This document shows positions 5,769 to 62,085 of a stretch of 64,000 nucleotides of DNA, one piece after another. Location: IMG/VR virus record IMGVR_UViG_3300035208_001463, positions 1 through 64,000 of that record; one strand, 5' to 3'. Origin of the DNA: a virus (Duplodnaviria; Caudoviricetes). Below the pieces are notes generated by a model. That model was not told where the DNA came from. It saw only the letters and a program-made list of their open reading frames with translations, and did not search any database. The position numbers were made by a program, and so were the translations under genes. Position 1 is the first letter of the stretch; each line of letters opens with the position of its first letter.

Positions 5769-5954
5769 ACAAACAATGTAGGAGTTTATAGTATTTATAC
5801 ATTTCGTAAATGGATTATTTTATTCAAATATGTAAATTAAAAATATGGTAAAAATGGTTTGTTTTGAAAGTAGAAAAAGATTTTGTTTGGTCGTGCGCGC
5901 GCAAAATCATAGAAAACTATATAATGAATGGACGCGTATATGGTAGTGATTAAA

Positions 5955-6173
5955 ATGGGCTTATTAGATATTTTTTCTCACGAATATGATATCAGAGCAA
6001 AAGTTTTGTTATCTGATGGAAGAATGGTCAATGTTAAAATTCCGATTAAAGCCAGAGGTGTAAGCAAAGAAGAATTAACAGAAGCGGTAATAAAAGAAAT
6101 TGAAAAGAATATGAGATCTAAAGTAAAGAAAATTATTAAGATGTATGATGCAAACGAAAATGGGGAGAAGTAA
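5955..6173 (+). CDS. hypothetical protein
   Basis: First ORF after the TATA+ACGCGT promoter at 5918-5937; start moved to the internal ATG. Confidence 0.55.
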   Translation: MGLLDIFSHEYDIRAKVLLSDGRMVNVKIPIKARGVSKEELTEAVIKEIEKNMRSKVKKIIKMYDANENGEK

Positions 6174-6175
6174 GG

Positions 6176-6529
6176 ATGAAATATATTTTTATAATTTTAA
6201 TAATAATGTTGTGCGCGGCACCGGTATTGGCAATAACATACCCACAGGAGTATTATACATTACAAACACAATCTGATTCGTATGAACATTATATTTCGGA
6301 TTTAATTGATAACATGAGTAATCTTAATAATATGTGGGATGCAAAAACATATTTAATGTTACATTATGATCTTAAACGTCAAAACATATTGTTGGAAAAA
6401 CAAAACGAACTGCAAGCAGAACTCATAAAGGCACAGTGGGTTGAGACGTGTTACTCTGATTATTCTGGATATGGTAATGTTTCCGCGTGGAAATCCGAAT
6501 GTGCGAATGCGGGATATCCGGTGGGATGA
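6176..6529 (+). CDS. secreted/membrane-anchored hypothetical protein
   Basis: Signal peptide MKYIFIILIIMLCAAPVLA. Confidence 0.6.
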   Translation: MKYIFIILIIMLCAAPVLAITYPQEYYTLQTQSDSYEHYISDLIDNMSNLNNMWDAKTYLMLHYDLKRQNILLEKQNELQAELIKAQWVETCYSDYSGYGNVSAWKSECANAGYPVG

Positions 6530-6862
6530 AGATGAAAGATAATATTGAATTGATCAATGAAATTGAAAAAGATATTATCACTCTTATATATTTAATTCCA
6601 GAAGATCTTTCGAATACGGAGCGAGTATATGAAATTAAAAATTATTTTATGATTAAGAGGCGCGATTTAAAATGATCCAAACAACCATCTCCGAAGAAAC
6701 AATTTCCGAAGCCCTTGCTTTAAGAGTATTAGTTAAGAGATTTATTGAAGATAATAAAATCCGTTGCGCGGAGTCGGTTTATCAAACCGATTGTGTTGCT
6801 GAAAACTCATTGGAGTTTATTGAATCGTTGTGTGAAGTTGTTGGGTATTGTGAGGAATAAAA

Positions 6863-7186
6863 ATGACCGAAAGAAAAGAAATAACGTTGCCAATAAAATG
6901 CAGCACTGTAAAATGCGCATATGAAGTATTACGAGAAATCGCATTGGTCATTGGAGTGTTGCTACCATTTATTGGCGCGGCAATGTGTGTGGCATCGTGG
7001 TATATATTTGCGTATGTTGACCAGATTAAAATTGTTAAGATGACTTCATTGGGGCCAGTTATTTATTATAGTGACACCGCTTTATTCTTGGGATTTGTTG
7101 GATTCTTTTCGTTAATGATAGGAATTATTCCGTGTAGCATGATTTTGTCAGATAGATATAAAATATCATGTATTAAGGATGATTAA
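6863..7186 (+). CDS. two-TM membrane protein
   Basis: Two hydrophobic segments; GAGG RBS. Confidence 0.55.
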   Translation: MTERKEITLPIKCSTVKCAYEVLREIALVIGVLLPFIGAAMCVASWYIFAYVDQIKIVKMTSLGPVIYYSDTALFLGFVGFFSLMIGIIPCSMILSDRYKISCIKDD

Positions 7187-7332
7187 AAATGATTGAAATA
7201 TTAATTGATTATCCTATACTTGGATATGTAATACCAATAGGCTTGTTTATGTTAATAGTTGTTTATTTATTTTATTATGTTTTCATCAAAAAATAAAATA
7301 TTCCTTTACTATTTTCACCCCCACCAACCAAA

Positions 7333-7351
7333 CCTATAAATACTAACGCGT
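7333..7351 (+). promoter_or_regulatory. TATA + ACGCGT promoter (type example of a recurring motif)
   Basis: CCTATAAATACTAACGCGT 13 nt before the ATG; near-identical TTAAATACTAACGCGT at 8186-8201 and TTAAATACTTACGCGT at 12202-12217. Confidence 0.75.
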
Positions 7352-7364
7352 ATTATATATAATA

Positions 7365-8168
7365 ATGACAAAACTCATAAAAACGTTTATAAGATACCCC
7401 GGTGGCAAAAGCAGAATGATTGAACCCATTCTTTCTAGATTGCCACAATCAGAAACATTTACAGATGTTTTTGTGGGTGGTGGAAGCATATCGATTGCGT
7501 ATGCTCAAAAGTACCCCGATTCTATAATACATATGAATGATTTTGATAAGTTTACTTATTCAATATGGAAAGTTATTGTATCTGGATCAGATCAAGACAT
7601 TCAAAAATTGTTTGAATTAATTTGTCAAGTTCCTACAATTGATTTATTTAAAAAAAACAGAGAATTGATGAAGTCCGATGATATAATTATGCGCGCGTAT
7701 TTAGGCATATTTTTTCATAAATGTACATTCTCTGGTATGTTCGACGGGAATCCAATGGGCGGGTTTGGTCAAAAGTCTAAATATAAGATCGGATGCGTTT
7801 ATAATATAGATAATATAATAAATAAAATACAATCTGTTAGAACATTATTGCGTGGAAGAACAATAGTTACCAATACCGATTTCAGAAATTTGGAGTTGGG
7901 GGATGTTAGTTATTTTGACCCACCATATGTTGTTGTTGGAAATAAATTATATGCTATGCCATTTAATGAAAAGGATCACATTGATTTAAAAAATTTTATC
8001 AGTAACAAAAAATCAAAGTGGTTGCTTTCTTATAATGATCACCCATTGGTTAGGGATTTATATTCCAATTACAAAATAGAAGAATTTAATCATATAATGA
8101 ATATGACTTCATTTTGTAAAGAGAAAAAATCTCGCGTTAAAACAGAGTTGTTAATTTCAAAAATTTAA
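7365..8168 (+). CDS. Dam-family (D12 class) DNA adenine methyltransferase
   Basis: RYPGGKS, DVFVGGGS, NDFD, YFDPPY, WLLSYND, ELLIS. Confidence 0.92.
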   Translation: MTKLIKTFIRYPGGKSRMIEPILSRLPQSETFTDVFVGGGSISIAYAQKYPDSIIHMNDFDKFTYSIWKVIVSGSDQDIQKLFELICQVPTIDLFKKNRELMKSDDIIMRAYLGIFFHKCTFSGMFDGNPMGGFGQKSKYKIGCVYNIDNIINKIQSVRTLLRGRTIVTNTDFRNLELGDVSYFDPPYVVVGNKLYAMPFNEKDHIDLKNFISNKKSKWLLSYNDHPLVRDLYSNYKIEEFNHIMNMTSFCKEKKSRVKTELLISKI

Positions 8169-8282
8169 ATTTCTAATAGATACAATTAAATACTAACGCG
8201 TCCTACATATATACGCGATATGACGCGTTGCGCGTCCGACCGCACAGAAACGAACGACGAACAAAACGAATGGAGAACTATT

Positions 8283-9032: not shown

Positions 9033-9058
9033 AAATATATAAAGGAGATTGATACAAA

Positions 9059-12047: not shown

Positions 12048-12230
12048 CCATGTGCATCAAAACAACCTCAATTAAATACCCAAACACTAATTGTTGTAAC
12101 AACCCAACATGTGACGTTTCATTAACCCCACCGTTTCTTGAGAAGGCGCGGTGTTTTAATTGTGGGGAAGAGTGTTCTGGTTGTGGGAAGTTTAAGAAGT
12201 ATTAAATACTTACGCGTTCTATACATAGTT

Positions 12231-14300: not shown

Positions 14301-14345
14301 TGATAAACCAACACCCTTAAATAGAACTAACGCGTATAAATTATC

Positions 14346-16366: not shown

Positions 16367-16369
16367 GGA

Positions 16370-18777: not shown

Positions 18778-18999
18778 ATGACTGAAGTTGTAGGTAAAGA
18801 AGTTATTACGCGTGAGAAGGGATACCTGTATTGCGTCACAGCAGAAGGAAATGTAGATCGTATTCCTGCAAAGTCAAACAAGACTGGAAGCCGTAAGACC
18901 GTGAGCACGCAGAAGGTTACTAAAGAGAAGGGTTATCTCTACTTTGTTGGTAAGGATGGTCGTGTTGCTCGGTCTCCTATGAAGAATGCAGCGCAGTAA
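18778..18999 (+). CDS. small basic protein with internal duplication
   Basis: REKGYLYCV...KEKGYLYFV; own TATA promoter, AAGGAG RBS and T-rich terminator. Confidence 0.75.
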   Translation: MTEVVGKEVITREKGYLYCVTAEGNVDRIPAKSNKTGSRKTVSTQKVTKEKGYLYFVGKDGRVARSPMKNAAQ

Positions 19000-20161
19000 T
19001 AAGAACAAAATCTATTTTTAATATTATTTTTTTAAGTTTTACTGGATACCGAAGGTTTTAAATAGATAGAACGCGTAGTAGTATTGTAGAAAGTTTTTGG
19101 AGTAGGTGAAGAAAGATGGATGACGACATGAATGATCACATGAGAAGTATGGAAGAGATGTTTGGTGTTTGCACCGAATGTGGATCTATATTATGTAATT
19201 GTGGAGTGTGCCACGTATGTGAAGACAGAAATCGTGATGGTGATGAATAATGTCATATTGCCCTATCATTAAAAAGGAATGTCCCGAAAGTCATGACGAA
19301 TGTGAGTTTTGGGAAGAGAAAGAAGAACACGAAAGATGTAAAGATGGTGGATGCGAAGGGTGGGGTTGGGATTGTGATATCTGCCCCAGAATGGTATATT
19401 GGGCAACCGGTGGTAAGTGTTCGTTAAAGAACAATAGGGGGAGACGATGATCCACTACAACCGCACCACCATCACGGAAGAACCAATATCAGATTTACCT
19501 AATAAATGTCGTGAATGTGGATGCAATTGTAGTAAAACGGAACGCGCGATTTGTCTTGCGGAGATGAATGGGTGATGATGGACTTATATTCAAAATCTCG
19601 GATTACCGAATCAGAAGCAAATACTCTGATTAAAGCAGTAGACATTGTTGTTGATGCTAATGGAGCAGCAAGGAAATGGACTGATACACAGATCGCAATG
19701 CGCAAATCATTTGAACACGCAGTAATTAAAGCGCATGTTATTGGGTATGGTGGTAAACCATGATAACAACATTCCACAAAAAACGTTGTGAAAATTGCAA
19801 AAATAATAATAAGGATGGTTGTCCGTTTTCCGAATATTGGAAAACGACGTGGCATTCGGATGTGCAGTATTTCATTAACAAAATGGGTTGTGCGTCGTTC
19901 AAGGAGAAGTGATTTAAATGGGTGTAATGCCATGTTACAGAGAAGGTTGCGAAAACATTATGTGCGACCGTTACAATTCAGAATTTGGTTATATTTGTAA
20001 CGAGTGTTTTGCCGAATTGGTAGAGTTTGCTAATATTAATAATGGTGGCGTCGTAACGGATGAGTTCATTGTTGGATTTATGACAACGAACAAGAAATCT
20101 TATAAACAGAAGAAAGTAGATGCAAGAGAATGTTTAGAAGAAATATTTCCGGGGTATTAAG

Positions 20162-25106: not shown

Positions 25107-25498
25107 CTATTACATTCTCTTAAATTTTTAATACAAACATCTATTAATAAATTATATACGTCGTTAAAATCCTTTCCGTGCCCATCATAAATCAAGTGCG
25201 CACATTCATGTGAAGCGAGGTCTATTAATTCTTCATATTCCAAATCACGGATTTTTGTTTCATTGTAATATATTATTCTAGGGATTCTTCTACATATTCC
25301 TACACATGCGTTTTTTCTATTACTAAAACCTATATTTATTTTATCGGCGGAATACGAAACGGAAGGATCTAATTTGTCTTTATAAGTATCAAGAACAAAT
25401 TTTGAGATTTTATTTGTAATATCTATAAGATATTCTTTTTTGTCTGGGTGATTGAATGGGAAAATGTTTTCTAATGTAAACGAATTATTAATAATCAT
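25094..25498 (-). CDS. SprT-like zinc metalloprotease domain protein
   Basis: HECAHLIYDGHGKDF; shares YKDKLDP.(I/V)SYS and CVG.CRRIPRII with 13911..14300. Confidence 0.75.
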   Translation of the reverse strand: MIINNSFTLENIFPFNHPDKKEYLIDITNKISKFVLDTYKDKLDPSVSYSADKINIGFSNRKNACVGICRRIPRIIYYNETKIRDLEYEELIDLASHECAHLIYDGHGKDFNDVYNLLIDVCIKNLRECNRCLN

Positions 25499-25713
25499 CG
25501 CCTCCAATAACGCGTATTAAAATAGGTGGTATTCGTATTTATAGTTATTCTTTATTTGTAAACTTCTTCAAATACTCGCTCATCACCCAATGCCCACAAA
25601 CGAGATAATCATCTGTTTCTGTATCATCCAAATCACAAGTCTTGTGTGTATGACACGAACTTTCTTTTGTTTTCATATGTTCGCACGTCGCACAACATGT
25701 AAATGCTATAAAT

Positions 25714-26049
25714 TTAATCATTTTTAACATCCCCATCAACCATATGCAAAATCGACAACCATTCCGGTACATCAATATTAACGCTACCAGCATATCCTTT
25801 TTCAATCGCTTCTTCTATTTCCTTCCTAAATAAATTGCGCCTGCTCTGTGGCATATGATTCCAATTTGCTTTGATAATATCAGCGATTGCTCCGACTACA
25901 TATGTTTGCCTGCCTAATGCATAACGGAACGCGCAGAAAAGAAGGATGTCTTGATTGCAATCTTCAAAGTTGATGTAGATTTCTCCAGTTCTACGACCGG
26001 GTAGAGGGGGTGTTAGTTTTTGTGGTTGCGATTTTGGTGTTCGTTTCAT
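25714..26049 (-). CDS. hypothetical protein
   Basis: AFRYALGRQTY motif; overlapping operon structure. Confidence 0.6.
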   Translation of the reverse strand: MKRTPKSQPQKLTPPLPGRRTGEIYINFEDCNQDILLFCAFRYALGRQTYVVGAIADIIKANWNHMPQSRRNLFRKEIEEAIEKGYAGSVNIDVPEWLSILHMVDGDVKND

Positions 26050-26251
26050 GTTATATGTTCCCCCTCGCTACTTGTGTAACTATATGGATTTTGAACTGGT
26101 GATTCGCGGTTTTCAATAAATGTCTCTTCCAAGCATTTTGGACATTTATACCCAACTATGATGAGATTGCTTCCCCCAGTCCATTCAGTTATAGGATTTA
26201 CAATTGGGCAATCACAATCTTTCTTATGATTAAATTTATTTATATTTCGTT

Positions 26252-26677
26252 TCATTTCTTTTTCCTCATTTTATCAACAAATTTTGATAGATCTTTACCA
26301 ACCGGTGTAGTCTCAAAATATTCTTCGCAGGTTAATATTGTTCCATTTTTAAGTTGCACCATCCCCGTTACGGGATCTTCCATTCTCCCATCGTCTCCCC
26401 ATGTTATAATGCCATCTGGGTTATAAAAATCATTGTGGATGGTACGGATTTCTCCATTGAATATAACTTCATTCCATCTTGGTATTCTATTCATGTATAG
26501 GGGATTCATGGGATTGTTTACGCGTTCTCCCTTTATTGTTCTCCATGTGCAATATGTAATACATTCTACATATTCATTGTCATATTTATTACATACACAA
26601 CCACATGGATATGGGTCATAAAAGTCGCATCTATCAGAACGATCTTCCTTTATTCCAGCACATTCGGGGCGGGTCAT
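26252..26677 (-). CDS. Cys-rich hypothetical protein
   Basis: ATGA-coupled to neighbours. Confidence 0.55.
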   Translation of the reverse strand: MTRPECAGIKEDRSDRCDFYDPYPCGCVCNKYDNEYVECITYCTWRTIKGERVNNPMNPLYMNRIPRWNEVIFNGEIRTIHNDFYNPDGIITWGDDGRMEDPVTGMVQLKNGTILTCEEYFETTPVGKDLSKFVDKMRKKK

Positions 26678-27105
26678 TTATCTTCCTCATCTGGTATTGA
26701 ACATCCTTTTAATGGTGCAAAAGGCGCGCCGAACCAATATCCTTCAGCTCCACATTTTCCGCAAACACAATGATCAACAAGTTTTTCATCGATTTCCATT
26801 GTTACAAGATTATCTTTACTCCAATTGTGATTATATGGCCCTGCGTTAATTTTTGGATCTGTGTTGATTTCTTTTTTACCCCCGGATATAAGACCGTTAA
26901 AAAATTCGATTTTATAATCTGTGTTTAATATAGTATCAACACAATTATTACATACAGAAATCCACCCCGTTTGAAATTGATTGGAAGTCTCTCGTTTGAG
27001 ATAATATCTTCCAACTGCTTCCGTTCCCGGGTTTCCCGTAGATCCGTTTCCATAGGGATTACAAATCATACAAAATTTTTTGCCGTGTCTGCTCATGTTT
27101 ATCAC
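26674..27105 (-). CDS. Cys-rich hypothetical protein
   Basis: CMIC, CNNC, CGKC; preceded by a TATA+ACGCGT promoter. Confidence 0.55.
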   Translation of the reverse strand: MINMSRHGKKFCMICNPYGNGSTGNPGTEAVGRYYLKRETSNQFQTGWISVCNNCVDTILNTDYKIEFFNGLISGGKKEINTDPKINAGPYNHNWSKDNLVTMEIDEKLVDHCVCGKCGAEGYWFGAPFAPLKGCSIPDEEDK

Positions 27106-27134
27106 TTATACGCGTTGTTAGTATATATAATTTA

Positions 27135-29450: not shown

Positions 29451-29606
29451 TTGTGGACTCCTATAATTGAATGGTCTGATAACTATACAAAATTGCGTTT
29501 TGGTATGACGCGTGTTATGTGTTTGTTGTTGTTTGTATTTAATCCTTCCGACACAAGAATTAAATACAATCGCGTCCTATATGAACAATCATAGAGGTTT
29601 AGAAAT

Positions 29607-30116
29607 ATGGAAAATGCAATTGAAACCAACGAATCTGTAACGATCAAGATAACAATTGAAGTTATACCGGGAAGGAAGAAGGAAGAAGTTGCTGCTGTTA
29701 AAATGCCAGTAGTAGAAGTTCCCCCCAAAGAACCAATCGTGGAAGTTTCTACACCAATTGTCGAAGAACCCGAAATGGTGTTTGAACCAATGACCCCGCC
29801 TGCACCAGAAAAGAAAAAGCGCGCATACACAAAGAAGACAAAAGAAGTTACACCTGTGGAAATTTCTAATGAGAATCCCGCTTCTGTTGGAATACCCGAC
29901 ACAAAACCCATTGTTCCTGTTACTCCCGTTACTTCAACTACTAACAAAGTAACCGCGCGCCTTGCGCAGATGATTAGATTCTATTGTAAGGCATCTAATA
30001 TCCCGACTACCGAAGTTACAAAGAAATATTTGATTGACCACGGTGCGGCTGATATTATTGAAGGTGCTACAGATGAAGATATCGAAGAGGCGTTTAAAGA
30101 GGTTGTAAAGAAATGA
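29607..30116 (+). CDS. Pro/Glu/Thr-rich low-complexity protein
   Basis: Divergent from nrdJ; GAGGT RBS. Confidence 0.6.
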   Translation: MENAIETNESVTIKITIEVIPGRKKEEVAAVKMPVVEVPPKEPIVEVSTPIVEEPEMVFEPMTPPAPEKKKRAYTKKTKEVTPVEISNENPASVGIPDTKPIVPVTPVTSTTNKVTARLAQMIRFYCKASNIPTTEVTKKYLIDHGAADIIEGATDEDIEEAFKEVVKK

Positions 30117-30520
30117 TTCCGTTTGATGTTGATCCTATGTTATATTTTCCATTTATAATTGCAATAATTGGAGCATGTATATTATTTATCATGTCCATTT
30201 TGTTGAAATTTAATCTTTGTTGTTATTTGTCTATAATTTTGTTTGTTGTTGGTATCATTGCTTCTTCGTTCTTCGTATTTGGATCTACATATACAGATAC
30301 AATAACGGTGTGTAAACATATTTCTTCTTATTATGATATGACTGTTATTGATACTAATGAAAACGTATATTATGTTCGAGACGTTGTTACGAAACTTAAA
30401 GTTAAAGACAATCTTACTACAAAGGTAAAAATAAAAGAATATTGGGGTTTTAAATGGATTTATTCCATCGACGCTCCAATCACATGCGGAAACCAAACAT
30501 GCGGGGTGGTTACATCATGA
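30113..30520 (+). CDS. membrane protein
   Basis: Two TM helices plus a soluble domain. Confidence 0.55.
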   Translation: MIPFDVDPMLYFPFIIAIIGACILFIMSILLKFNLCCYLSIILFVVGIIASSFFVFGSTYTDTITVCKHISSYYDMTVIDTNENVYYVRDVVTKLKVKDNLTTKVKIKEYWGFKWIYSIDAPITCGNQTCGVVTS

Positions 30521-30915
30521 CCCCGCAAGAAACAATCGCGCGCAACCTCATACGTTTCTTCATTTTGATCGTATTTGAAGCGGGAGTATTCTCTGGTATT
30601 GCGGCAACGCTTCTATTAGGAGATGTTAGAGCACTAGTTGTTACCCTCGCTTTAATAACATTGGTCTTTTGTGGCTGGATCATCTGGAAACAGAAAACAC
30701 AATTTATAGGTAAAGAAGCAGTTGAGAGTGCCGCACAAAGCATTGCGAAGATATTTATTATCATCGTGTTTGTTGCTGGTATCATATTAGGAATCGCGGC
30801 TGCACTTCTTACTGGAATAAGCGCGGGCCTGCTTGTTGTGATTTTGTTTGGTGCGCTGTTGGTAATGGGGGTTTGGTTGTTTAAGGGACTTCTGTTAGGG
30901 AAATGGTGGAAGTGA
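30517..30915 (+). CDS. four-TM membrane protein with internal duplication
   Basis: FILIVFEAGVFSGIAATLL vs FIIIVFVAGIILGIAAALL. Confidence 0.6.
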   Translation: MTPQETIARNLIRFFILIVFEAGVFSGIAATLLLGDVRALVVTLALITLVFCGWIIWKQKTQFIGKEAVESAAQSIAKIFIIIVFVAGIILGIAAALLTGISAGLLVVILFGALLVMGVWLFKGLLLGKWWK

Positions 30916-31384
30916 ATGACCAAAAGTGAGTTGTTGTATTATACAATAAAATCACAACATTACAGAATGAAGGGATTATATTATAAAATCCTATCTATGC
31001 TATCTTTAAGTAAAGATAATAAAACAAAATTTTTAATTGCAAAATTTTGTAACGATGCAATGTATTTTTCAGAAAAAATGTGTATAAAAGCGGGGTGCTA
31101 TGATTGACCACACCAACCTACACAAAAGAAGAATGGGATTCTCGCAGGCTCACATATAGTGGAGCATTATGCGCGCTCCTTGATATTATGTTAATGGGTC
31201 TTTATTTAATTGGGGGTATTGCATTTGTGCGTGCGTCTTCAATAGAAACTAATTATCTCATGTGGGGATATTTAGCAGTAGGTATTTTCCTGATGTTTAA
31301 TGCTATTGGAAAATTTATGTGTCTCGTGCATCCCCGAGATTGGTATGAGACGGAGATTACTATTAAGAAGGGTGAAGGATCAGA

Positions 31385-32161
31385 ATGATTTTAAAAACTG
31401 TAACAATAACTGGAGCGGATGATAAAGTAAATCCAGAAGAATTATATGAATTATCAAAAGAATTCCCATTTGTAGAATGGGGTATTTTATGGTACCCAAA
31501 GAAAATGGATCAGCCAAGATATCCATCGAAACAATGGATCAAAACATTATTTGATGGAAATCTTAAGAATGTAAATATTTCTCTTCATATTTGTGGTGCT
31601 GATGCAGAAAACTTTGCTTTCGGATCTAAAGATTTTCTTTTTGATGAACAAGAAATATGGCGGTATATTTTCAAATCCAATCGCATTCAATTAAATTTTC
31701 AAAAATCATCATTTGATCTCGATGATGTATTAGAGTTACTTACACGAAGAAAAAATTATGATTTTCGATATGCCATAAATCGTTATCATGCACTCGACCC
31801 CGGAAGATATGTCGTTATTCAGGCAAACGAAGGGAATAAAATTTTGAATGCCTGCTTGGAGAGAGAACCGGCAATAGAATTCCTGTTTGATGAATCCCGT
31901 GGAAAAGGAAAATCGATAAGGGAATATCCATCTCCAATATTACATAAATTTAATGGATATGCAGGAGGGATAACCCCGGATAACGTTTTGTCTGTATTAC
32001 ATGATTTAAGAAAGGTTGTTCCCGATAAGGAGGAAATATGGATTGATATGGAATCTGGAATTAGAACTAATAATGAATTTGATTTCGAGAAGGTCAAATC
32101 TGTTTTAAATGATGTTAAATCTCATATACCGTCAAAGTTTTTAAAACCCGGTGACGTATAA
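31385..32161 (+). CDS. TrpF-like TIM-barrel protein
   Basis: TITGAD, EWGIL, PRYP, LHICG, FDESRGKG, GYAGGITPDNV, WIDMESGIRT. Confidence 0.7.
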   Translation: MILKTVTITGADDKVNPEELYELSKEFPFVEWGILWYPKKMDQPRYPSKQWIKTLFDGNLKNVNISLHICGADAENFAFGSKDFLFDEQEIWRYIFKSNRIQLNFQKSSFDLDDVLELLTRRKNYDFRYAINRYHALDPGRYVVIQANEGNKILNACLEREPAIEFLFDESRGKGKSIREYPSPILHKFNGYAGGITPDNVLSVLHDLRKVVPDKEEIWIDMESGIRTNNEFDFEKVKSVLNDVKSHIPSKFLKPGDV

Positions 32162-32659
32162 ATGTCTCTAAAAATAATCTCGGGTGGACAGTCCGGCGCG
32201 GATCAAGGCGGATTGTTTGGCGCGCGCGATGCTGGATTTCCGACAGGTGGATACGCTCCATCCAATTTCTATACTGAAAATGGCCCACGACCGGAACTTC
32301 TAAAGAGTTTTGGATTAATAGATTCCGGTTTAGATTATGTTGGAAGGACACGATTGAATGCTAAAAATTCCGACTTTACAATATGGTTTGGAAATGTTTA
32401 TTCTCCGGGTGGAATTGCTACTAAAAGAGAAGTTTTGAAAGCAAAAAAATTATTTTATGATGCTTCATATTCTGCACCGGAAAGAATAGCAGAAGAATTA
32501 TTTGTTCATGGAAAAACTTGTGTTAATATTGCAGGAAATAGAGAATCGCATGCAGTTGGTATGTGTGAGTATGTAAGAAAAATAATTAAAAATTCATTGG
32601 AAATCTATAAACTTTATAATAATGATTTAAAATTATCCGACACCAGACGAAACCCTTAA
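32162..32659 (+). CDS. SLOG-family (cpYpsA / putative molybdenum carrier) protein
   Basis: KIISGGQSGADQGGL, TGG.AP, RT..N...SD.T, NIAGNRES. Confidence 0.82.
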   Translation: MSLKIISGGQSGADQGGLFGARDAGFPTGGYAPSNFYTENGPRPELLKSFGLIDSGLDYVGRTRLNAKNSDFTIWFGNVYSPGGIATKREVLKAKKLFYDASYSAPERIAEELFVHGKTCVNIAGNRESHAVGMCEYVRKIIKNSLEIYKLYNNDLKLSDTRRNP

Positions 32660-32774
32660 ATAGAATACGCGTATAACAAGTTACAATAATCTTTTTACCA
32701 GAGGTATTAGAATTGACAAAACTTAAACATTCATTGTTCGCTTGCTCGAAGACCTATATTTTCGGTGTTATATC

Positions 32775-34667: not shown

Positions 34668-34936
34668 GATTATAAACCAATTTTTCTTAATGCACCCATA
34701 GCACCCGCGCAACATTCCATCATGCGATCTTCACATTTCTTGTGTACAAAGGCTGGGTGTTTCCCATCTTTTTGCAATCCACATTTGCTTTTTACTGGAT
34801 TTCTAACACCTTTTCCACAGAACATACAGACATTCATGATTTTCTCATCACATTACTATACGCGGGTTTAGTATTTATATTTATCTCCACGCTCTTTTAG
34901 ATACCTTTTTATCCTTTAAACACGTATACATATACA

Positions 34937-38687: not shown

Positions 38688-38942
38688 TTAATTTACGTCT
38701 TTATCTTCTTTTTCTTTCGGCTGCTGCGCGCGCGGGTACAGACCTGTGAATGTTTGCGTGTCCAGCGAATCAGGAAGAAGTTTATCTTCGATAATCAGGA
38801 TGATAAGTTCATTAAGCACTTCTGCATAGATCGGTGCTTCTGCTGTGCGCACCGCGCTGTTGAGCGCACTGATAAGGCGTTCTTTCTTCTGTACATACTT
38901 CAATACTTTCTTCATTTCATCTTCAGTATAAGATTCAGTCAT
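38688..38942 (-). CDS. hypothetical protein
   Basis: MTESYTEDEMKK...; GGAGG RBS. Confidence 0.6.
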   Translation of the reverse strand: MTESYTEDEMKKVLKYVQKKERLISALNSAVRTAEAPIYAEVLNELIILIIEDKLLPDSLDTQTFTGLYPRAQQPKEKEDKDVN

Positions 38943-39075
38943 ATTTATCGGATTCCTCCAGTTTTTTTGTTTTTTTCTCAATTGCCAATTCTGCAATTGT
39001 AGCCAAATTTAAACCGCGCGCGCGTCCGGCTTCGGCGATCTTTCTTTCGATTTTAACAACTGCATCGCGTGTCAT
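38935..39075 (-). CDS. ribbon-helix-helix (CcdA-like) regulator (46 aa, not in ORF track)
   Basis: Hand translation MTRDAVVKIERKIAEAGRARGLNLATIAELAIEKKTKKLEESDKYD; beta-helix-GLNL-helix pattern. Confidence 0.6.
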   Translation of the reverse strand: MTRDAVVKIERKIAEAGRARGLNLATIAELAIEKKTKKLEESDKYD

Positions 39076-39082
39076 GATTTAC

Positions 39083-39109
39083 ACATATGTTCCATTTGGA
39101 AACATATGT
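39083..39109. promoter_or_regulatory. operator-like inverted repeat between divergent promoters
   Basis: ACATATGTTCCA-TT-TGGAAACATATGT. Confidence 0.5.
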
Positions 39110-39178
39110 ATATAATAACAACCAACTACTATATATACCTTTTGTTTGATATTAGTTTATGAGAGAGGTGCATTTTAC

Positions 39179-39517
39179 ATGTTTGAGAAAGTTACGACTT
39201 ACCTCAAGAGCGCATACACCAAGGGTATGGAGCTGATTCACGACTCCGAGGCAATCGGTGAGGCAACCCTCGCCGGTATCGGGATGGTCGTCGGCGGGGC
39301 CATATTCATCGTCATAGGTATATTCATGGTAGGAACGCTGTTCAACAGCCTCCCGATCCTCACGGGGATCATGAATACAACCATGAGTAATGCACAGAGC
39401 AATGTTTCTCTCGCGTTTACCTTCTTGGGTATTGCACTCTTCCTGTTGGGAGCTATCGTTCTGCTCCTCGAATTCATCCCGGTTATCCGGATTTTCGTAG
39501 GTGGAGAACGCCAGTAA
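39179..39517 (+). CDS. candidate major capsid protein of spindle-shaped-virus type
   Basis: Polar leader, then EATLAGIGMVVGGAIFIVIGIFMV, loop with NTT and NVS sequons, second hydrophobic helix; GC-richer codons than neighbours, GAGGTG RBS, own promoter and terminator. Confidence 0.6.
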   Translation: MFEKVTTYLKSAYTKGMELIHDSEAIGEATLAGIGMVVGGAIFIVIGIFMVGTLFNSLPILTGIMNTTMSNAQSNVSLAFTFLGIALFLLGAIVLLLEFIPVIRIFVGGERQ

Positions 39518-41870: not shown

Positions 41871-42506
41871 TTATAACACCGGTTCCCATGCTTCTGAAAA
41901 CTCTCGCTCTTTATATAATTCGGCCAAACCAGTTACCTGTTTTAATCTTAATACTTCGTCTGGTTCCATCCCCAATTCGTGACCAATCTTTTCGTTGCTC
42001 CATCTTCTACGTGATAATTCTTGAACAATTTCACTCATACCAGAAACACTATGTTTCCCTCTCGCTCGGTTGTGCCGTATTGTGGAAGCCATACGATCTC
42101 CCCGCGCTGTGCGTTCGTTATTTACTTTCACAATGGGTAAATAACCATGCGTGCGCTTTATAACTTCTTTGCTTTCTTTACCAACTCTACTTCTATGGAA
42201 TCCGTCTACAACTTCATAGACATTGTTGGTTTCCCACGAAACCACTGGTTGCGTGTATCCGTCTTCAACAATCGAGGTTTCGAGTAATTTCATCTCCGGA
42301 TTTGCAACATTATTGGGATTATAATCGTTCTTTCCTACGATATCCGATTTAACCCATAGAACCAGATCAACGGGTTCGTTTTTCATCGGGGATGCGTCGT
42401 GAAGAATTGTTCTTATTTGGTTAAGTAAAGATAGTTGTTCATCTTCAGAATATTTAGACAATTCTTCTACAATTTCTCGCGTTTTATTAATTAAATCAGA
42501 TTCCAT
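41871..42506 (-). CDS. ibrB: IbrB/YbdM-like ParB-family protein
   Basis: EPVD.V.WV, NDYNPN.VA.PEM.LL, DGYTQP, VDGFHR, MASTIRHNRARGKH, LGMEPDEVLRLKQ. Confidence 0.88.
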   Translation of the reverse strand: MESDLINKTREIVEELSKYSEDEQLSLLNQIRTILHDASPMKNEPVDLVLWVKSDIVGKNDYNPNNVANPEMKLLETSIVEDGYTQPVVSWETNNVYEVVDGFHRSRVGKESKEVIKRTHGYLPIVKVNNERTARGDRMASTIRHNRARGKHSVSGMSEIVQELSRRRWSNEKIGHELGMEPDEVLRLKQVTGLAELYKEREFSEAWEPVL

Positions 42507-43696
42507 TTTTCTCTCCTCGTTTTCATGAGTTTCAAATATTTTTCATATGCAGATGTTTTTGTAGGGGCGAATGATAGTGTGCGGCACCAGTAATCTAATC
42601 GTAGAAGCGTTTTACAAATCCGTTTCCATGATGGATGATTATCAGTGCTTCCACAATCTCCGGGTTGTGTATCGGGAATTGTAATACCTCTATCTTTATA
42701 CCATTTTAAATATACCGATATTTTGTTTTTATAATGTTCTGAAGTTGACGTTGGCATTGAATTGAGAAGATGCATAGCGAAAGACTGCCAAGTGTGATTT
42801 GGTGGAAGTATAATTTGGTTAATACCCAATACGTTTCCTTTTTCTTTTGCATAAATGGCTCCCATATTCGCCCCGTTAACGCGCGCAACAATTTTGCCCC
42901 AAGTTTCTGGTTCGATTGCATGAAATAACCATAATCCTTGACGCTGTTCAGAACCATACGGTTCACAAATTCGCATTTTGTGTAGAGATAACCCCGCGCG
43001 ACTCATTTGATCATAGAGTTTATTGTATGGAAGATTCGTTTTTCCATGAAAGGTCCATATATCTTCTGTAGTCCAATCATAGATTGGAAATACGTTACAA
43101 ACATTATTGTTGGTTGTGGTATAGCATTTGTTATCATATGAGTGTTTAACCCCAGCATTTATAGTTCTCCATCTGTTTAGAGATTCTAGTGTACGGATGC
43201 CTATAAATGAGGCGCTGGGTGTAACATTTGAATAATAATGAAGAAACGCGGGAACGAATTCTTCAAATGTCATAGCATATGTATAGAAGGGAAAATGCGA
43301 TGTATCTGTAATAGCAATTTCGGGTGGATGTCTGACCCATATGGATTCTTTTCCTTTCTCCCACGAAATCCACTCGGGTTCAAATTGTGAAACCGCATTA
43401 ACAGTTTTTAAAGGAAGGCAAACCCAAAATGGAATTATGAGATCTTTATAAAGGTTAAACATTTCTGCGACATGAACAATTGTATATTTATATTGTGCTT
43501 CCCAATCGACAAATAAAACAGCAAATTTTTGGTTGCGTTTTTTTGCTTCTGCTGCTACGAGATGAAACATTACAGTGGAATCTTTACCACCAGAAAAGCT
43601 TACACAGATTTTCGGGAACGTATCGAAAGCCCACGCGATGCGTCGCTGTGCGGCTTCTAGTACATTGATACCAAGAGGTTGTTTCCAAGAAGACAT
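42491..43696 (-). CDS. ibrA: IbrA/YbdN-like PAPS-reductase-family protein (DUF3440)
   Basis: SFSGGKDS, GIRTLESLNR, PIYDW...DIW, MRICEPYG.EQR.GL, PSWKRICK. Confidence 0.88.
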   Translation of the reverse strand: MSSWKQPLGINVLEAAQRRIAWAFDTFPKICVSFSGGKDSTVMFHLVAAEAKKRNQKFAVLFVDWEAQYKYTIVHVAEMFNLYKDLIIPFWVCLPLKTVNAVSQFEPEWISWEKGKESIWVRHPPEIAITDTSHFPFYTYAMTFEEFVPAFLHYYSNVTPSASFIGIRTLESLNRWRTINAGVKHSYDNKCYTTTNNNVCNVFPIYDWTTEDIWTFHGKTNLPYNKLYDQMSRAGLSLHKMRICEPYGSEQRQGLWLFHAIEPETWGKIVARVNGANMGAIYAKEKGNVLGINQIILPPNHTWQSFAMHLLNSMPTSTSEHYKNKISVYLKWYKDRGITIPDTQPGDCGSTDNHPSWKRICKTLLRLDYWCRTLSFAPTKTSAYEKYLKLMKTRREKWNLI

Positions 43697-44132
43697 CCAT
43701 ATAATATATGCTTTATTAGTATATAAAAGTATTGGTAGTGAGTTAAAAACGTGGAACTAAAATATCTTATTCTCCCTCTTCCCCTCCACCGGGTCACGCG
43801 TGAACCAATAACAAACAATTTCCCGCATCGAAGTTATAGCATTGGTTTCATTTCGCTTATGACGAATGTTACAACCATACCCGGACAATCTACATTTTCC
43901 ATTGTTGTATCGTGTGCATTGGCGGATGAATTTCATATTAACACAAAATATTTTCTGGAATCATTTCCCAATTAGAAGGATCTTTTTCCATAATGGGATC
44001 TTGATATTTCTTATCGTGCATTGTAATGTCGAGGCATATTAAATATCGTTCGAGATGCTCATCTAACGTGCCTTCAATAGAATGCTTGCATTTTCGAACG
44101 CATCCATTGCATTGAAAATTAAGGGTTGACAT

Positions 44133-44426: not shown

Positions 44427-44645
44427 ATACTACTAGAACGCGTAAGTATAAAAGTCTTGTGGTTTAAGAAAAGAATGTGATTACTTTTTGGAATTTGATG
44501 TAAATTCTTTATAATGTTTTTCACAAAAGTGGAACATTCCTGCTTTGTGAGTTCCCTCTTGTCTGCATCTCCGTACATCGCAAGGTGTTTTTGTTTTAGT
44601 TGTCATAATAAAAGATTGTGTTCAAAGTATAAATAAGTTGTGATA

Positions 44646-47614: not shown

Positions 47615-47745
47615 TTTTTCACAACTCCTCTAATTTTTGTATAATACTACTACGCGTCCTAACAATATAAATCTTTCTATGATTTTATACGAAACCTTTA
47701 TTAACAATCAATACCTAATACAAATATTAATATAGGTGAACAATT

Positions 47746-48135
47746 TTGGCGGTTGCAGAAACTTTTACATATTCAACAATGAATTCCACCCCTGAAGCTG
47801 TGTGGATGTTAATGGCATTGATAGCAGTATCTTTCTTTATAATCGCGTTTTCCCACAAACTACGAGATGAAGATGGTTCTATATCAACGGTGCGTGTAGC
47901 ATTCTCGTTATTCGGCAGTGTTATTTGTGGCATTGTTGCTTATCTGTCGTTAGTTATAGATGTGAATACGGGATCGCAGACCCACGCGCTTTATCAATCT
48001 CCCGTGGTTGCAATAGTGTTTGTGATATTTAGTATAATTTTGTTTGCTAATTTTGTATATTCTATTATTGCTCCAGAAATGATAAAACCAAGTAAGGATG
48101 ATTATCACTTCAAACCGGAGGAGAATAAGAGATGA
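47746..48135 (+). CDS. three-TM membrane protein (putative virion/envelope)
   Basis: Paralogous to the C-terminal domain of the next gene. Confidence 0.7.
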   Translation: MAVAETFTYSTMNSTPEAVWMLMALIAVSFFIIAFSHKLRDEDGSISTVRVAFSLFGSVICGIVAYLSLVIDVNTGSQTHALYQSPVVAIVFVIFSIILFANFVYSIIAPEMIKPSKDDYHFKPEENKR

Positions 48136-51022: not shown

Positions 51023-51186
51023 CGATTCGGTTGTTTTCTTGTACATTTTTGTTTCCTCGTTTTGTTTGGGACTTCGGTTGTCCCTAAACATAATGTGCGA
51101 TATTAGTATTTATAACTTTTGAATACGCGTTCTAACATATATAACTCACACAAACTCTTTTATAGAATGAACCACTATGGTTATTT

Positions 51187-51438
51187 ATGGTTAAAGAAGA
51201 TACAACAAAACTTTTTACGCGCGACCAAGAGACAACCGTGAGATTCCAGTTGGCGTATGGTACGGGAATGATAATTGTCGCGCTTATCACATTTTGGATT
51301 TGCTCGCAGATATTTACCGTGGATATTAAATATGCTGTATTAGCAATCGGCATTATTCTAGCGTTGACGTGGTTCCGGGATGGACTTATGATCTTGGCAG
51401 ACGTTGCGATTAACATTATGAAGAACCGCGAGAACTAA
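51187..51438 (+). CDS. two-TM membrane protein
   Basis: Two hydrophobic helices. Confidence 0.55.
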   Translation: MVKEDTTKLFTRDQETTVRFQLAYGTGMIIVALITFWICSQIFTVDIKYAVLAIGIILALTWFRDGLMILADVAINIMKNREN

Positions 51439-52060
51439 CCACAACCTTTTTATATAAACGCGTCTAATCATAATACATGAAAATCATAGGAACATTTTCT
51501 GTTACAAACGGGATGATCCGAGCACCACCCGGTACAGAAGGACGATTCACACTTGAATTGAATAGCAATGGATCTTTTATTTATCACCCACTAAAAAAAT
51601 GTGATACAGAATATCCTTTTGAAGTTTATGATGGTAATGAATTGCTTGCTTCATTTCCTACAGAAGCAAAAGCCATCGAATATAAACTTACAATGGAAAA
51701 ATCTTGTGGGCACACCTTACGCATGAAGAAAATGTTCCCTTCTGCTGGGAAGAATGGGAAGATTGTGGGGGATTAAAAACATGATTAATCCTGCCAACAT
51801 TGGTTATTTGAAGGGTATCATCATAAAAGAACTTTCCGCCGGTCGTCAATGTGAAATAACAGGTAGTATGCTAGTTCACATTAAGAATATTGAAGATTAC
51901 GAAAGCAAAAAAGAAAAATTCGTGGGAAAATTTGGAGAGGTCATTGCCAGAACACCAATTACAATAATTGCCACGCGATTTCCACCACCGTGGGCAGAAA
52001 AGAAAATTGACGAAGTGATATGGGATTGTGACGAGATGTTACGGTGGGATGCTGATATTA

Positions 52061-58963: not shown

Positions 58964-60148
58964 TTATTTTTTGTATTTCTTAATAATATTTGCATGTTTA
59001 ACTTTGTAAATCTCATATTCTTCTTTTGTCAAATAACACTTTTTACCTTCTTTCGTTCGTTGTTCAACACGATCTTCTAAAAATTTAATCCACCAAATTT
59101 TATCCCTTCCAGATTTTTTATTCCCCCTCACAATTCCGTGTTCTTCATGTGTTAATAAAACAAATTTATTGGGATCTTCTTTGATATAATATTTAATCCA
59201 ATCCGGGTTTTTATTTGAACCGTTATTAATCCAAGCGTAATATCCTCCAGCGTCCTCATCCCAAATGCAACATGCTTTCTCTTGCCAGTATAAGTGATGT
59301 CTATCTAATGCATATCCCCTATGGTTTTCAAATCTCGTTTTACCAGATAATATGCTTTTAAAATCATAAGCTGCATCTATACGATTCTTTAAATCTTTAT
59401 TCCATTTTTCACAATAATATAATCTCGTTGGGCCGCGTAAAATATGGTGACCATACCAAAATAGTTCTCCGGTTAATTGTTCTATCCAAGATACATTTTC
59501 ACTTCGGAGTATCATGCTTTCTTTATTTTTAGGATCATTCATCCTTTTTATCATACCACTTTTAAAATTTTTTATATACTCTTCGTTTTCTTTATGGAGA
59601 AGTAACACAGTATTTCGTATTTTTTCTACATTTTCCTTGTTTTTACAAGCGCAATCAAAACATCTATAATTCTCCTCGGGTTTATCAAAATTGCATTTAT
59701 AGTCGGTTCTTTCCTTCCCACAGTCTATACATTTATAAGTTACGGTTCCAACACGTATGTGTTTTCTAGAACATTTGTAGCACCTGTATTCAGATATTTT
59801 GTAGTGTTTGGCATCACTCGGTCTTACTTTTCTTTCTCTACCACAATCAGAACATTTTAATACTATTCGTTCGGATCTTCTATTTTTCTGTGCACATGTA
59901 TAACATCTATACTCTTCACGTGGCTTTTTAAAATCGGATGGGTATAAAGTTCTCTCTTTTCCACAATCTATGCACGCATAAGTTACTTTATTATTTTTCC
60001 TTCTATCCGGATTTATTTCCCACCAATGTTTACCAGCACATGAATGGCATCTATAGTCTTCTATCCATACACCGTCTTTATAAAAACGAGATTTTTGTGC
60101 TGTCTTCTCTTTTCCACAATCAACACAATATCTAGTGATTATTACCAT
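58964..60148 (-). CDS. Zn-ribbon repeat protein with C-terminal HNH-like domain
   Basis: Four CxDCG(K/R)E(R/K)...YRCxxC units; YCEKWN...LDRHH...FVLLTHEEH. Confidence 0.75.
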   Translation of the reverse strand: MVIITRYCVDCGKEKTAQKSRFYKDGVWIEDYRCHSCAGKHWWEINPDRRKNNKVTYACIDCGKERTLYPSDFKKPREEYRCYTCAQKNRRSERIVLKCSDCGRERKVRPSDAKHYKISEYRCYKCSRKHIRVGTVTYKCIDCGKERTDYKCNFDKPEENYRCFDCACKNKENVEKIRNTVLLLHKENEEYIKNFKSGMIKRMNDPKNKESMILRSENVSWIEQLTGELFWYGHHILRGPTRLYYCEKWNKDLKNRIDAAYDFKSILSGKTRFENHRGYALDRHHLYWQEKACCIWDEDAGGYYAWINNGSNKNPDWIKYYIKEDPNKFVLLTHEEHGIVRGNKKSGRDKIWWIKFLEDRVEQRTKEGKKCYLTKEEYEIYKVKHANIIKKYKK

Positions 60149-60259
60149 TATTTAATTATATGTTTTTATAGTATATAAATTGTTCTGATCATAAAATACT
60201 ATAATAAATTTCAAAAGTTTCATCGAAAAAAGATATTTTATTTTTATTTTATTAGGAGT

Positions 60260-60341
60260 GGTGAAAAACATCCTCTTATGAGAGAGGGAAGCATAAACCG
60301 CTTGCCACGCGTGGCAGTCTCACCGTCACGGATTTTGACGG
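60260..60341. ncRNA. candidate structured RNA/DNA element (multi-hairpin)
   Basis: GC-rich intergenic island: GGTGA/TCACC enclosing CCTCT/AGAGG, AAGC/GCTT, TGCCAC/GTGGCA, followed by CCGTCA/TGACGG. Confidence 0.4.
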
Positions 60342-60358
60342 ATCATCGCCGGGTTAAA

Positions 60359-60547
60359 TTAATCCATAGTATATGGGTATTTATAAAATTTGTGCTTTAC
60401 TCCACTACCGTTGCAACACGGGCACACAACATTTAGGCCCGTTTGAGCATTTCGTTGTACCCCAGATCCACCACAGCATTTACAAGTATTATCTTTTGGA
60501 ATAGGATCTCCAATTCGATTATTATTAAGTTTATTAAATTCAATCAT
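60359..60547 (-). CDS. DnaJ-type zinc-finger microprotein
   Basis: CKCCGGSG...CPCCNGSG. Confidence 0.65.
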   Translation of the reverse strand: MIEFNKLNNNRIGDPIPKDNTCKCCGGSGVQRNAQTGLNVVCPCCNGSGVKHKFYKYPYTMD

Positions 60548-60697
60548 ATTGTCGTCACCAACTCATAAGGTGGAACAGAAATTCCCAATGCACACATATG
60601 TGGAATATCCTCAACATTGTGTGTTTTGAACACACATTCTCTACTATCGCACCATTTGCATATCCAAATGTATGAATATCTCATGTCTTTCATATGA

Positions 60698-61366
60698 TCA
60701 CCTCACCCCCACTTTCGCACGAAACCCATCAAAGATTTCACTCATCCGAATATCATACAAGAAATCTTCGAATGGTTTTGGATCTACTTCATCCGGAAGC
60801 ATAGACTTTTCTTTTGCAAGATCAAGATATCTAAACCATTTTCCGATATTCTCATTTGTTATTTCATCTTCGGGTGGTTTGAATTCGATTTTGTGATTCA
60901 TAAGCATTGTAACCCCGAATTGAAGTGTTCGCATAGTGGTTGCTTTGCTTTTTAACGGGTCTTTTACACTTGCACGTTTTATTGCATCATTGAGTTGTGA
61001 ATGTGCCATTCCATTAATAGATGCATAGGATGACTTTGAAAGATTGTCGGTTACAATATCACGAAGTTTTGAAAGCCATTCGCTATCTTTATGAATGATT
61101 GGCGAGCATACGCTCCATATTGCATTTACATTGCCTTTTTTAAGCAGGTTGACAAGATGACCAATCTCCATATATTGTGCATCGATTTCTTTTGTATTCT
61201 CGAAGTAGGATTTTGCTGCACGGGTCTTTTCGAATGTGCTACCGCGCAGGTATTCGGAAGATGGCTGTTGAAATACATGGAACAGATCATAATCTGAACT
61301 GGGAGTGGCCATTCCCCACATACGGGAGCCTACTTCGGTGATGAAGAGATAGTTATCAGTCATCAT
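60698..61366 (-). CDS. Pol-beta superfamily nucleotidyltransferase (YcgL/RlaP-like)
   Basis: GSRMWGMATPSSDYD, KGNVN. Confidence 0.82.
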   Translation of the reverse strand: MMTDNYLFITEVGSRMWGMATPSSDYDLFHVFQQPSSEYLRGSTFEKTRAAKSYFENTKEIDAQYMEIGHLVNLLKKGNVNAIWSVCSPIIHKDSEWLSKLRDIVTDNLSKSSYASINGMAHSQLNDAIKRASVKDPLKSKATTMRTLQFGVTMLMNHKIEFKPPEDEITNENIGKWFRYLDLAKEKSMLPDEVDPKPFEDFLYDIRMSEIFDGFRAKVGVR

Positions 61367-61874
61367 ACCATCTCGAAGGTCTCCCATTCACCCAATCGTG
61401 TTTATAAGCCTCATCCCTCGTCACTTCAATTGTAACGCGGTCATCGTCTCTCCAATACCTGTCATTGTAGTAATAATATCGTGTATTGCTCCAATGGTGC
61501 GAGATGATGTTTATGTAGTCCACTTTATAAACAATCGCATTATATGGCGTGTATGTCGATACAACATGAAACTGTACACGATCTCCAATATTTAATTCAT
61601 CGTAGTATGAATAAGGAACATCAAAGATCCTAGTATCCTCTCTTATATTGACCTGCGCGAAACCCGCTGCACACGTCATGCTCGATATTGTAACCACATT
61701 CGTGAGATATGTAGGATCAGGCGTTGGTGTAGGCACAGGAGTAGGTGCAACCGTTACTACTGTGGGAGCGTTTACGTGTCCGTAGTTGTATCCTGCGTAG
61801 GCAATTGATGCTGATAAAAGCAGGATTGCGATGACAAAGATCGGGGTTGTGATGTCTTTTGTGTCGATGGTCAT
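61356..61874 (-). CDS. membrane-anchored protein with Pro/Thr linker
   Basis: N-terminal TM, PTPVPTPTP. Confidence 0.6.
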   Translation of the reverse strand: MTIDTKDITTPIFVIAILLLSASIAYAGYNYGHVNAPTVVTVAPTPVPTPTPDPTYLTNVVTISSMTCAAGFAQVNIREDTRIFDVPYSYYDELNIGDRVQFHVVSTYTPYNAIVYKVDYINIISHHWSNTRYYYYNDRYWRDDDRVTIEVTRDEAYKHDWVNGRPSRWYDD

Positions 61875-62085
61875 TTAAATCACCTCATCATGATATTTAC
61901 ATTCAATTGCATCATCATCACCGTTAACATAATATTCGCAACCAAGACAATCCTCTGCGTTTGCGGAACCATCTTCTGAAATGGGGCAATCTCCTATGAT
62001 TTTAGAAATGTTATGAAACGTTGTCATTTCTTTTCACCACTTTGTTAATTCTGTATACGCGTTATTAGTATTTATACTTTATCTT

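Follow-up and report, generated by a model that had tools for sequence, protein, structure and literature searches.

The window analyzed in this study, a stretch of 64 kb, represents the first part of the 112.5-kb IMG/VR record IMGVR_UViG_3300035208_001463 (estimated to be 82% complete, with 37% G+C), and many of its promoters feature the six-base palindrome ACGCGT, referred to as the box in the following. As proposed in an initial annotation of this DNA, the box is a promoter-linked element marking a subset of operons; it is conserved in related viruses, and the operons behind it are rich in replication and DNA-modification genes. With a probability of about 60%, we regard it as a clade-specific accessory cis-regulatory element of host-type promoters, i.e., those using TATA-binding protein (TBP), the TFIIB-like factor TFB and RNA polymerase, where it would serve as the operator for a dimeric factor that probably acts as a repressor. 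The clade concerned is a family of archaeal viruses of roughly 110–140 kb carrying the element.

All 15 ACGCGT positions listed in the initial annotation were found to be exact sites. In total, the window contains 25 copies, compared with 6.1 ± 2.6 expected from dinucleotide-preserving shuffles, and none of the 100 shuffles reached 25. Most of the ten exact sites not listed previously (1603, 8223, 18808, 21578, 26520, 37841, 43796, 50479, 50664, and 60307) are located in coding DNA or distant from TATA boxes. Within the whole record, 20 out of 33 copies reside in the 14.4% of the DNA that is intergenic according to our own gene calls. The core CGCG is itself 2.5-fold over-represented genome-wide (372 copies), and a loss of the signal upon modeling of this background had been named beforehand as grounds for abandoning the box. 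The modeling was performed, and the enrichment survives it: the other eight hexamers with a CGCG core are intergenic at the background rate (50 out of 339; Fisher p 2.2e-8 versus ACGCGT). Since, moreover, the 13 coding copies match the expectation (10.7 ± 3.0 in shuffles keeping the protein sequence and codon usage), the enrichment is specific for ACGCGT and for non-coding DNA. The outer bases also matter, as A-CGCG-T was counted 20 times in intergenic DNA versus one T-CGCG-A. When 15 boxes were aligned in promoter orientation, the information content outside the six bases equaled background; the box is a strict 6-bp palindrome without conserved flanks. The variant boxes described previously, ATGCGT at 1136, TCGCGT at 29570 and CCGCGT at 34860, are all present.

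The promoters of this genome are of the archaeal type, with the TATA 8-mers TTTAAATA, TATAAATA or TTTATATA, often followed by CTA. In front of many genes, the 8-mer is located exactly 21–24 nt before the ATG, predicting leaderless transcripts, and other genes possess a GGAGG/GGTGA site within a leader. Of the 20 intergenic boxes, eleven lie 1–7 nt downstream of a strict TATA 8-mer, the background being 10.7% (binomial p 1.3e-6). Based on a TATA weight matrix trained on leaderless promoters lacking the box, the spacer between TATA and box measures 3 nt at 7346, 8196, 12212, 44438, and 51458, 4 nt at 32667, and 6 nt at 5932, 14330, 19071, 27110, 47652, and 62057, as well as at 107843 beyond the window. 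One further box (25510) follows a strong TATA at a distance of 20 nt and overlies the predicted start point. Thus, in 13 window promoters, the box is placed 3–6 nt (once 20 nt) after TATA and is followed either, after 10–18 nt, by a leaderless start or by a leader. A second class has the box 9–10 nt upstream of a strong TATA and is represented by 51125 in the window and by 70641, 71118, and 72538 beyond it. This upstream class had been missed in the initial annotation.

Given the 22 nt between TATA and a leaderless ATG, or a start about 23 nt after TATA, the box spans approximately −19 to −14 or −16 to −11, downstream of the TBP/TFB site. It is thus mostly upstream of the initially melted region, which measures about 12 bp in archaeal promoters (PMC7289017), so that the previous remark on a GC-rich box located where archaeal promoters melt is only marginally right.

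Related contigs were recovered by protein-anchored searches. Among them, V2, a 138,951-bp contig binned in an archaeal metagenome-assembled genome and also deposited in IMG/VR, is collinear with the genome studied, 100 out of 198 proteins having a homologue (helicase, 56% identity; polymerase, 83%). V2 has 28 copies of ACGCGT, of which 15 fall within the 14% of its DNA that is intergenic (p 1e-6), and the spacers of 3, 4, and 6 nt, as well as the 9–10-nt geometry, recur. Its boxes occupy orthologues of the promoters at 5932, 8196, 12212, 19071, 29508, 32667, 47652, and 51125. The polymerase promoter region of V2 (32571) features a perfect ACGCGT where the genome studied has ACACGT, and at 66360 in V2, the box is situated midway between two strong divergent TATA boxes. 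The box is also kept in the close relatives L010, L011, L015, L018, and L022 (approximately 92% helicase identity). At the helicase-operon promoter of L011, L015, L018, and L022, variation affects four of the six spacer positions but neither the B recognition element (BRE)/TATA nor ACGCGT. Furthermore, turnover was observed at orthologous places, with ACGTAT in L015, ACGTGT in L060, and no box at two promoters of L020.

Relatives with 42–48% G+C (L021, L063, L064, and L065) share the same TATA consensus, yet lack ACGCGT, which indicates an accessory element of one clade rather than a part of the core promoter. A replacement box was also sought in these higher-GC relatives, where only TATA-type words were enriched and no other GC-rich word. 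The archaeal bin holding V2 yielded no mcrA match and shares neither the ACGCGT signal nor the excess of alternating (CG)n tracts described below, and is therefore uninformative on the host. A near relative of this virus was not found in the phage collection, and searching a viral contig collection with the primase and the polymerase yielded no useful relatives.

Genes encoded in the window include a family B DNA polymerase, a primase-helicase, an SNF2-type helicase, AAA_24 and DUF669 proteins, a ribonucleotide reductase, four DNA methyltransferases, homing endonucleases, and TnpB. Operons headed by the box encode a Dam-type methylase, the AAA_24/DUF669 proteins, a helicase together with an N6_N4 methylase, an SprT-like protein with an intein-bearing methylase, an RlaP nucleotidyltransferase, and many small unknown proteins. 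The reductase gene has an upstream box, and the polymerase gene and the operon starting at 29607 are preceded by one-mismatch variants. The absence of the box from putative structural genes, as initially described, is borne out by the regional counts: ACGCGT occurs in 14 of 32 promoter regions between 1 and 53.5 kb versus none of eight in the block at 84.7–105.3 kb, and V2 behaves alike, with 9 of 26 versus 1 of 25. The block (84–105 kb) is of the surface/structural type, and the very large proteins encoded there contain PKD, galactose-binding-like, CarboxypepD_reg, and DUF3821 domains. Each inspected individually, the capsid-candidate gene, the 47746 gene, the basic-protein array, and the 18778 gene have no box beside their TATA. 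The capsid-candidate gene (start near 39179; two predicted hydrophobic helices) possesses a strong promoter. According to the list of window sites, no exact ACGCGT lies near the tRNA, the promoter of which was not inspected on its own.

A compact, strict palindrome found at more than one position near TATA, maintained independently of its flanks and confined to one clade is as expected for a dimeric reader contacting one major groove. In the favored reading, one sequence-specific dimeric DNA-binding protein of viral or host origin would dock at ACGCGT. Bound to a downstream box, the protein would allow TBP/TFB binding and block the recruitment of RNA polymerase, whereas on an upstream box it could block TFB or take the role of an activator. 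Repression from a site downstream of TATA is a common archaeal mode and was proposed for the aCcr1-box (PMC9976878). The outcome would be a replication/modification regulon co-ordinated by time or state, apart from the capsid and surface-protein genes. The good TATA boxes of the boxed promoters fit promoters that would be strong unless repressed.

Several observations weigh against such an operator. Six base pairs are short for a typical archaeal operator, and the box is not tied to one position, as it occurs at three spacings downstream of TATA, in an upstream class and once over a predicted start. One-mismatch variants at the box position downstream of TATA are weakly enriched (12 versus 6.3 expected). 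The promoter at 12212 is conserved over its whole length, which could result from recombination instead of selection on the hexamer. Only approximately 22 of the 66 promoter-bearing intergenic regions, about one third, contain the box, and the functional split, which is based on small numbers, is no more than a tendency. Promoters lacking the box also include those of the non-structural primase/methylase/helix-turn-helix (HTH) operon, of the phosphoadenosine phosphosulfate (PAPS) reductase/ParB pair and of the leftward array of small basic proteins. Because the split is such a tendency and many non-structural promoters are box-free, the simple division into early and late transcription suggested at the outset is not established. 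Moreover, searches for candidate binding families were negative: no TFB domain was found in the 82%-complete record, KilA-N (PF04383) had no match at the family cut-off and Pfam RHH_1 (ribbon-helix-helix, RHH) no match at all in the record or the bin of V2, and when 59 small proteins of the window were scanned in bulk against Pfam, no DNA-binding family emerged beyond a weak PAX-like match. A virus-encoded TFB and a KilA-N/APSES protein, the latter by analogy to the yeast MluI cell-cycle box, were accordingly dropped as candidate readers.

The proteins named as binders in the initial annotation, an HTH protein (5595) and two RHH proteins (38935 and 47405), gained no support. The HTH at 5595–5768 is real, conserved and of the Cro/C1 type. 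It is conserved in box-negative relatives as well, and no co-variation with the box was seen for its recognition helix; in the box-positive L015, the helix is nearer to the copies of box-negative relatives. The 69-aa protein encoded behind the 47652 box has no homologue in V2 and yielded only a weak SeqA_N hint. The third candidate, an RHH-like protein of 46 aa (38938–39075), is 83% identical in V2 and has no Pfam match. Its homodimer model passed with a score of 0.50, compared with 0.02 for the best control, with a contact agreement of at least 96% and a pLDDT of 78 (own two-row alignment); the score mark applied was reached by 20 out of 30 solved pairs and by 1 out of 23 single chains. The model represents a symmetric dimer with strand-to-strand pairing, in which residue 7 faces residue 7. 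Between the TATA and the start of the 46-aa gene lies an inverted repeat with arms of approximately 12 bp (ACATATGTTCCA / TGGAAACATATGT), which is also found in V2; within the interval 38938–39178, the TATA of the divergent capsid-candidate gene follows this repeat at a distance of about 20 nt. The arrangement is likely an autoregulated switch for the capsid-candidate gene. Since the 46-aa protein would more obviously target this conserved repeat in its own promoter, it is not favored as the reader of ACGCGT.

Alternatively, the box might be an intrinsic core-promoter element needing no regulator, either a downstream TFB contact resembling a downstream BRE (BREd) or a discriminator-like GC clamp tuning open-complex formation. 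The box is indeed a GC island within AT-rich promoters and occupies the DNA just past TATA, which is contacted by TFB until promoter escape and lies just upstream of the melted region (PMC7289017). However, a BREd-like element should keep a fixed distance from TATA and be in general use wherever the same basal machinery operates, whereas the box is found at 3, 4, or 6 nt and, in one class, 9–10 nt upstream of TATA, and it is missing from relatives that share the TATA consensus. As no viral TFB was detected and a GC clamp would not be expected to require the strict A-CGCG-T identity, this explanation is considered unlikely. That the box has no function of its own and came along with promoter cassettes that were duplicated or recombined in a CGCG-rich genome appears extremely improbable. 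It would account for the 12212 cassette, which is conserved as a whole with different genes behind it in five genomes, for the long stretches shared by the three paralogous promoters at 70.6–72.6 kb, and for the overall surplus of CGCG. Hitch-hiking does not explain, however, why the flanks of the 15 aligned boxes are almost free of information, why the hexamer is retained while spacer and TATA change, and why intergenic DNA shows no enrichment of the other CGCG hexamers.

It was also considered that the box is the target of one of the four viral methyltransferases, its methylation state setting promoter activity directly or via a sensitive binder; the site would be unmethylated on entry or after replication and methylated later. 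The genes are at hand (7365, D12 class; 4210, 16711, and 22497, N6_N4), two or three of them reside in box-headed operons, the palindrome is type II-like, and the virus shows a separate strong excess of (CG)n tracts. On the other hand, the sequence assigns no specificity to any of these methylases, only the 22497-type enzyme is clearly common to the box-bearing V2, and ACGCGT in coding DNA is neither enriched nor avoided, so that methylation is a distinctly unlikely key to the box, and an operator for a dimeric factor remains preferred. The coding count (13 versus 10.7) likewise indicates no avoidance of ACGCGT as a MluI-type restriction target. In contrast, at least 12 other 6-bp palindromes are strongly avoided over the whole genome, among them CTGCAG (0 observed versus 15.8 expected), GGATCC (2 versus 23.5), CCATGG (1 versus 11.9), and CCGCGG (0 versus 7.1). 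Together with the four predicted methyltransferase genes, this avoidance points to heavy restriction pressure that the host would exert.

The (CG)n excess is a virus-specific signal at the DNA level and distinct from the promoter box. Alternating (CG)n runs of at least six bases occur 90 times genome-wide, e.g., at 5895, 32220, 32951, 38726, and 39015. GCGCGC alone is present in 81 copies at 37% G+C; 70 coding copies, in all frames and on both strands, compare with 13.5 ± 3.6 in synonymous-codon shuffles. V2 contains 83 copies, the rest of its bin (approximately 960 kb) 22, and the higher-GC relatives none. It is conceivable, albeit very improbable, that the box and this virus-specific fivefold excess of (CG)3 or longer tracts are two read-outs of one viral CGCG-recognizing system, for example, a methyltransferase with a methylation-sensitive reader. 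If true, the replication/modification regulon would be timed by the modification state of the incoming and the replicated genome, which would amount to an epigenetic infection clock in an archaeal virus.

Among known systems, the aCcr1-box of Sulfolobales is a 9-bp palindrome between TATA and start codon and is bound by a 58-aa RHH repressor; this dimeric protein prevents formation of the pre-initiation complex, and homologues are encoded by large spindle-shaped viruses (PMC9976878). Both boxes are palindromic and lie between TATA and the start of several genes. However, the ACGCGT box has six instead of nine base pairs and another sequence, it precedes replication/modification genes rather than cell-division genes, and it has an additional class upstream of TATA. 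The GTC motif of SIRV1/SIRV2, located directly past TATA, was proposed to be cis-regulatory by Kessler et al. in 2004, according to the summary in PMC5569661. It is comparable as a short virus-specific motif just downstream of TATA in host-type promoters; GTC is, however, a non-palindromic trinucleotide of most SIRV promoters, whereas ACGCGT is palindromic, also occurs upstream, and is found in a minority of the promoter regions of its virus (about 22 of 66). An identical hexamer, the MluI cell-cycle box, precedes DNA-synthesis genes in fungi, where it is bound by the APSES (KilA-N-derived) factors of MBF/SBF, the domain of which is thought to be of viral origin (PMC4862756). Considering the other domain of life, the other promoter architecture and the lack of any KilA-N/APSES match, this is a resemblance only.

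Full-text literature searches retrieved no paper linking ACGCGT to promoters of archaea or archaeal viruses, and a paper on spindle-shaped viruses of methanogens is without promoter analysis. To our knowledge, hardly anything is known of how large viruses of non-extremophilic archaea regulate their genes. The ACGCGT box is a genuine, clearly delimited regulatory element whose general kind is known; its sequence is new, and the virus family in which it occurs is poorly known. Current ideas are not overturned, because short virus-specific boxes beside TATA are already known from Sulfolobales viruses. What is provided is a defined element of six bases, the positions of which have been mapped, along with a list of about 20 target promoters and conserved orthologous sites from a second genome of complete size. 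It offers a handle for finding the regulator, for testing repression past TATA as a means of timing replication genes, and for annotating regulons in related metagenomic contigs.

The individual promoters are described in the following by spacer. With 3 nt, the promoter at 7335–7351 (plus strand; TATAAATA) is followed by ATG 7365, 22 nt past TATA, and thus leaderless; the gene encodes the D12-class (Dam-type) DNA methyltransferase. At 8185–8235 (plus), ATTAAATA precedes a cluster of CGCG motifs, consisting of ACGCGT 8196, ACGCGA 8213, ACGCGT 8223, and GCGCGT 8230, with the ATG at 8220, in front of the AAA_24/DUF669 replication-recombination operon. The 8196 box and ACGCGA are kept in V2 at 136680, and L015 has ACGTAT instead. 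The promoter at 12201–12217 (plus; ATTAAATA, box 12212, ATG 12231) belongs to a cassette (12197–12230) of which about 28 nt, comprising TATA, box and the sequence up to the start, are near-identical in five genomes. The other copies are located at L010:1199, L011:4200, L015:6749, and V2:984, with different genes on the 3' side and unrelated sequence on the 5' side, so that, by sequence comparison, the cassette looks like a mosaic junction. The promoter at 44438–44454 (minus; CTTTTATA) has 11 nt between box and GTG 44426, and that at 51447–51463 (plus; TTTTTATA, box 51458) is leaderless with ATG 51477. The variant TCGCGT also follows ATTAAATA by 3 nt (29559–29575, plus) and heads the operon at 29607–32659. 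The single 4-nt spacer is found at 32655–32672 (plus; CTTAAATA, box 32667), where the leader is longer; its V2 counterpart (30180) has the same spacing.

A spacer of 6 nt separates the TATA-like TATATAAT (5918–5925) from ACGCGT 5932–5937 (plus). The likely start there is ATG 5955, in frame with a longer open reading frame; the promoter is identical in L015, and the orthologous V2 promoter (135896) carries the box. At 14316–14335 (plus; CTTAAATA, box 14330), a leaderless start at ATG 14346 opens the helicase operon, which encodes a 125-aa protein, an SNF2/ResIII helicase and an N6_N4 methylase. The promoter at 19057–19076 (plus; TTTAAATA, box 19071) is followed by a leader with GGTGA and ATG 19116. 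Its V2 orthologue (8937) keeps ACGCGT with a differing TATA and spacer, and L060 has ACGTGT. On the minus strand, TATATATA and the box at 27110–27129 lie 13 nt before ATG 27096 and four small genes (25714–27096). The minus-strand promoter at 47652–47671 (TTTATATT) has a leader with GAGGAG and ATG 47614, the start of the 69-aa protein; in V2 (46086), the box is retained and the gene driven is a different one. At 62057–62076 (minus; TATAAATA), a leader with GGTGA and ATG 62027 follow, the operon including the RlaP-type nucleotidyltransferase. The variant CCGCGT occurs 6 nt after TATAAATA at 34860–34879 (minus) with a small leftward gene downstream, and the canonical box at 107843 follows TATAAATA at the same distance.

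Other arrangements comprise the box 20 nt past the strong TATAAATA (25543–25536) in the promoter at 25510–25543 (minus), with an in-frame ATG at 25498, in front of the operon encoding the SprT-like protein and the N6_N4 DNA methylase with a LAGLIDADG intein. At 29484–29513 (minus), ACGCGT 29508 precedes the TATA-like TTTGTATA of the leftward ribonucleotide-reductase gene by 16 nt; this arrangement is repeated in V2 at 26332 with different flanks. The variant ACACGT (34920–34925, plus) is found 11 nt 5' of the ATG (34937) of the family B DNA polymerase. The box at 51125 (51107–51144) is flanked by the strong leftward TATAAATA (51114–51107), 10 nt away, and the rightward TATA-like ATATATAA (51137–51144), 6 nt away; this layout also occurs in V2 at 47905 and 84724. 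The three paralogous promoters at 70641, 71118, and 72538, with the box 9–10 nt upstream of TATA, each precede one small gene and have long stretches in common, including a long conserved leader.

Some minor observations concern single sites and neighboring sequences. Two intergenic, non-promoter copies of ACGCGT are centered in longer perfect palindromes (43791–43806, GGTTCACGCGTGAACC; 60303–60316, TGCCACGCGTGGCA). The copy at 18808–18813, 30 nt into the small 18778 gene, is kept in V2 (8673) and L015 (15392), which may reflect protein conservation only. At 41871–43696, the PAPS-reductase/DUF3440 protein adjoins a ParB_N protein behind a promoter without the box; this IbrA/IbrB-like pair is a possible DNA-modification module. 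Furthermore, in many strong promoters, boxed or not, a stretch rich in C and A with the pattern ACCAACAC(A)AA is visible by eye directly 5' of TATA, e.g., at 7320–7334, 14305–14315, 32640–32654, and 51433–51446. The exact word CCAACAC is only modestly enriched (14 versus 6.2), its copies lying mostly away from these stretches.

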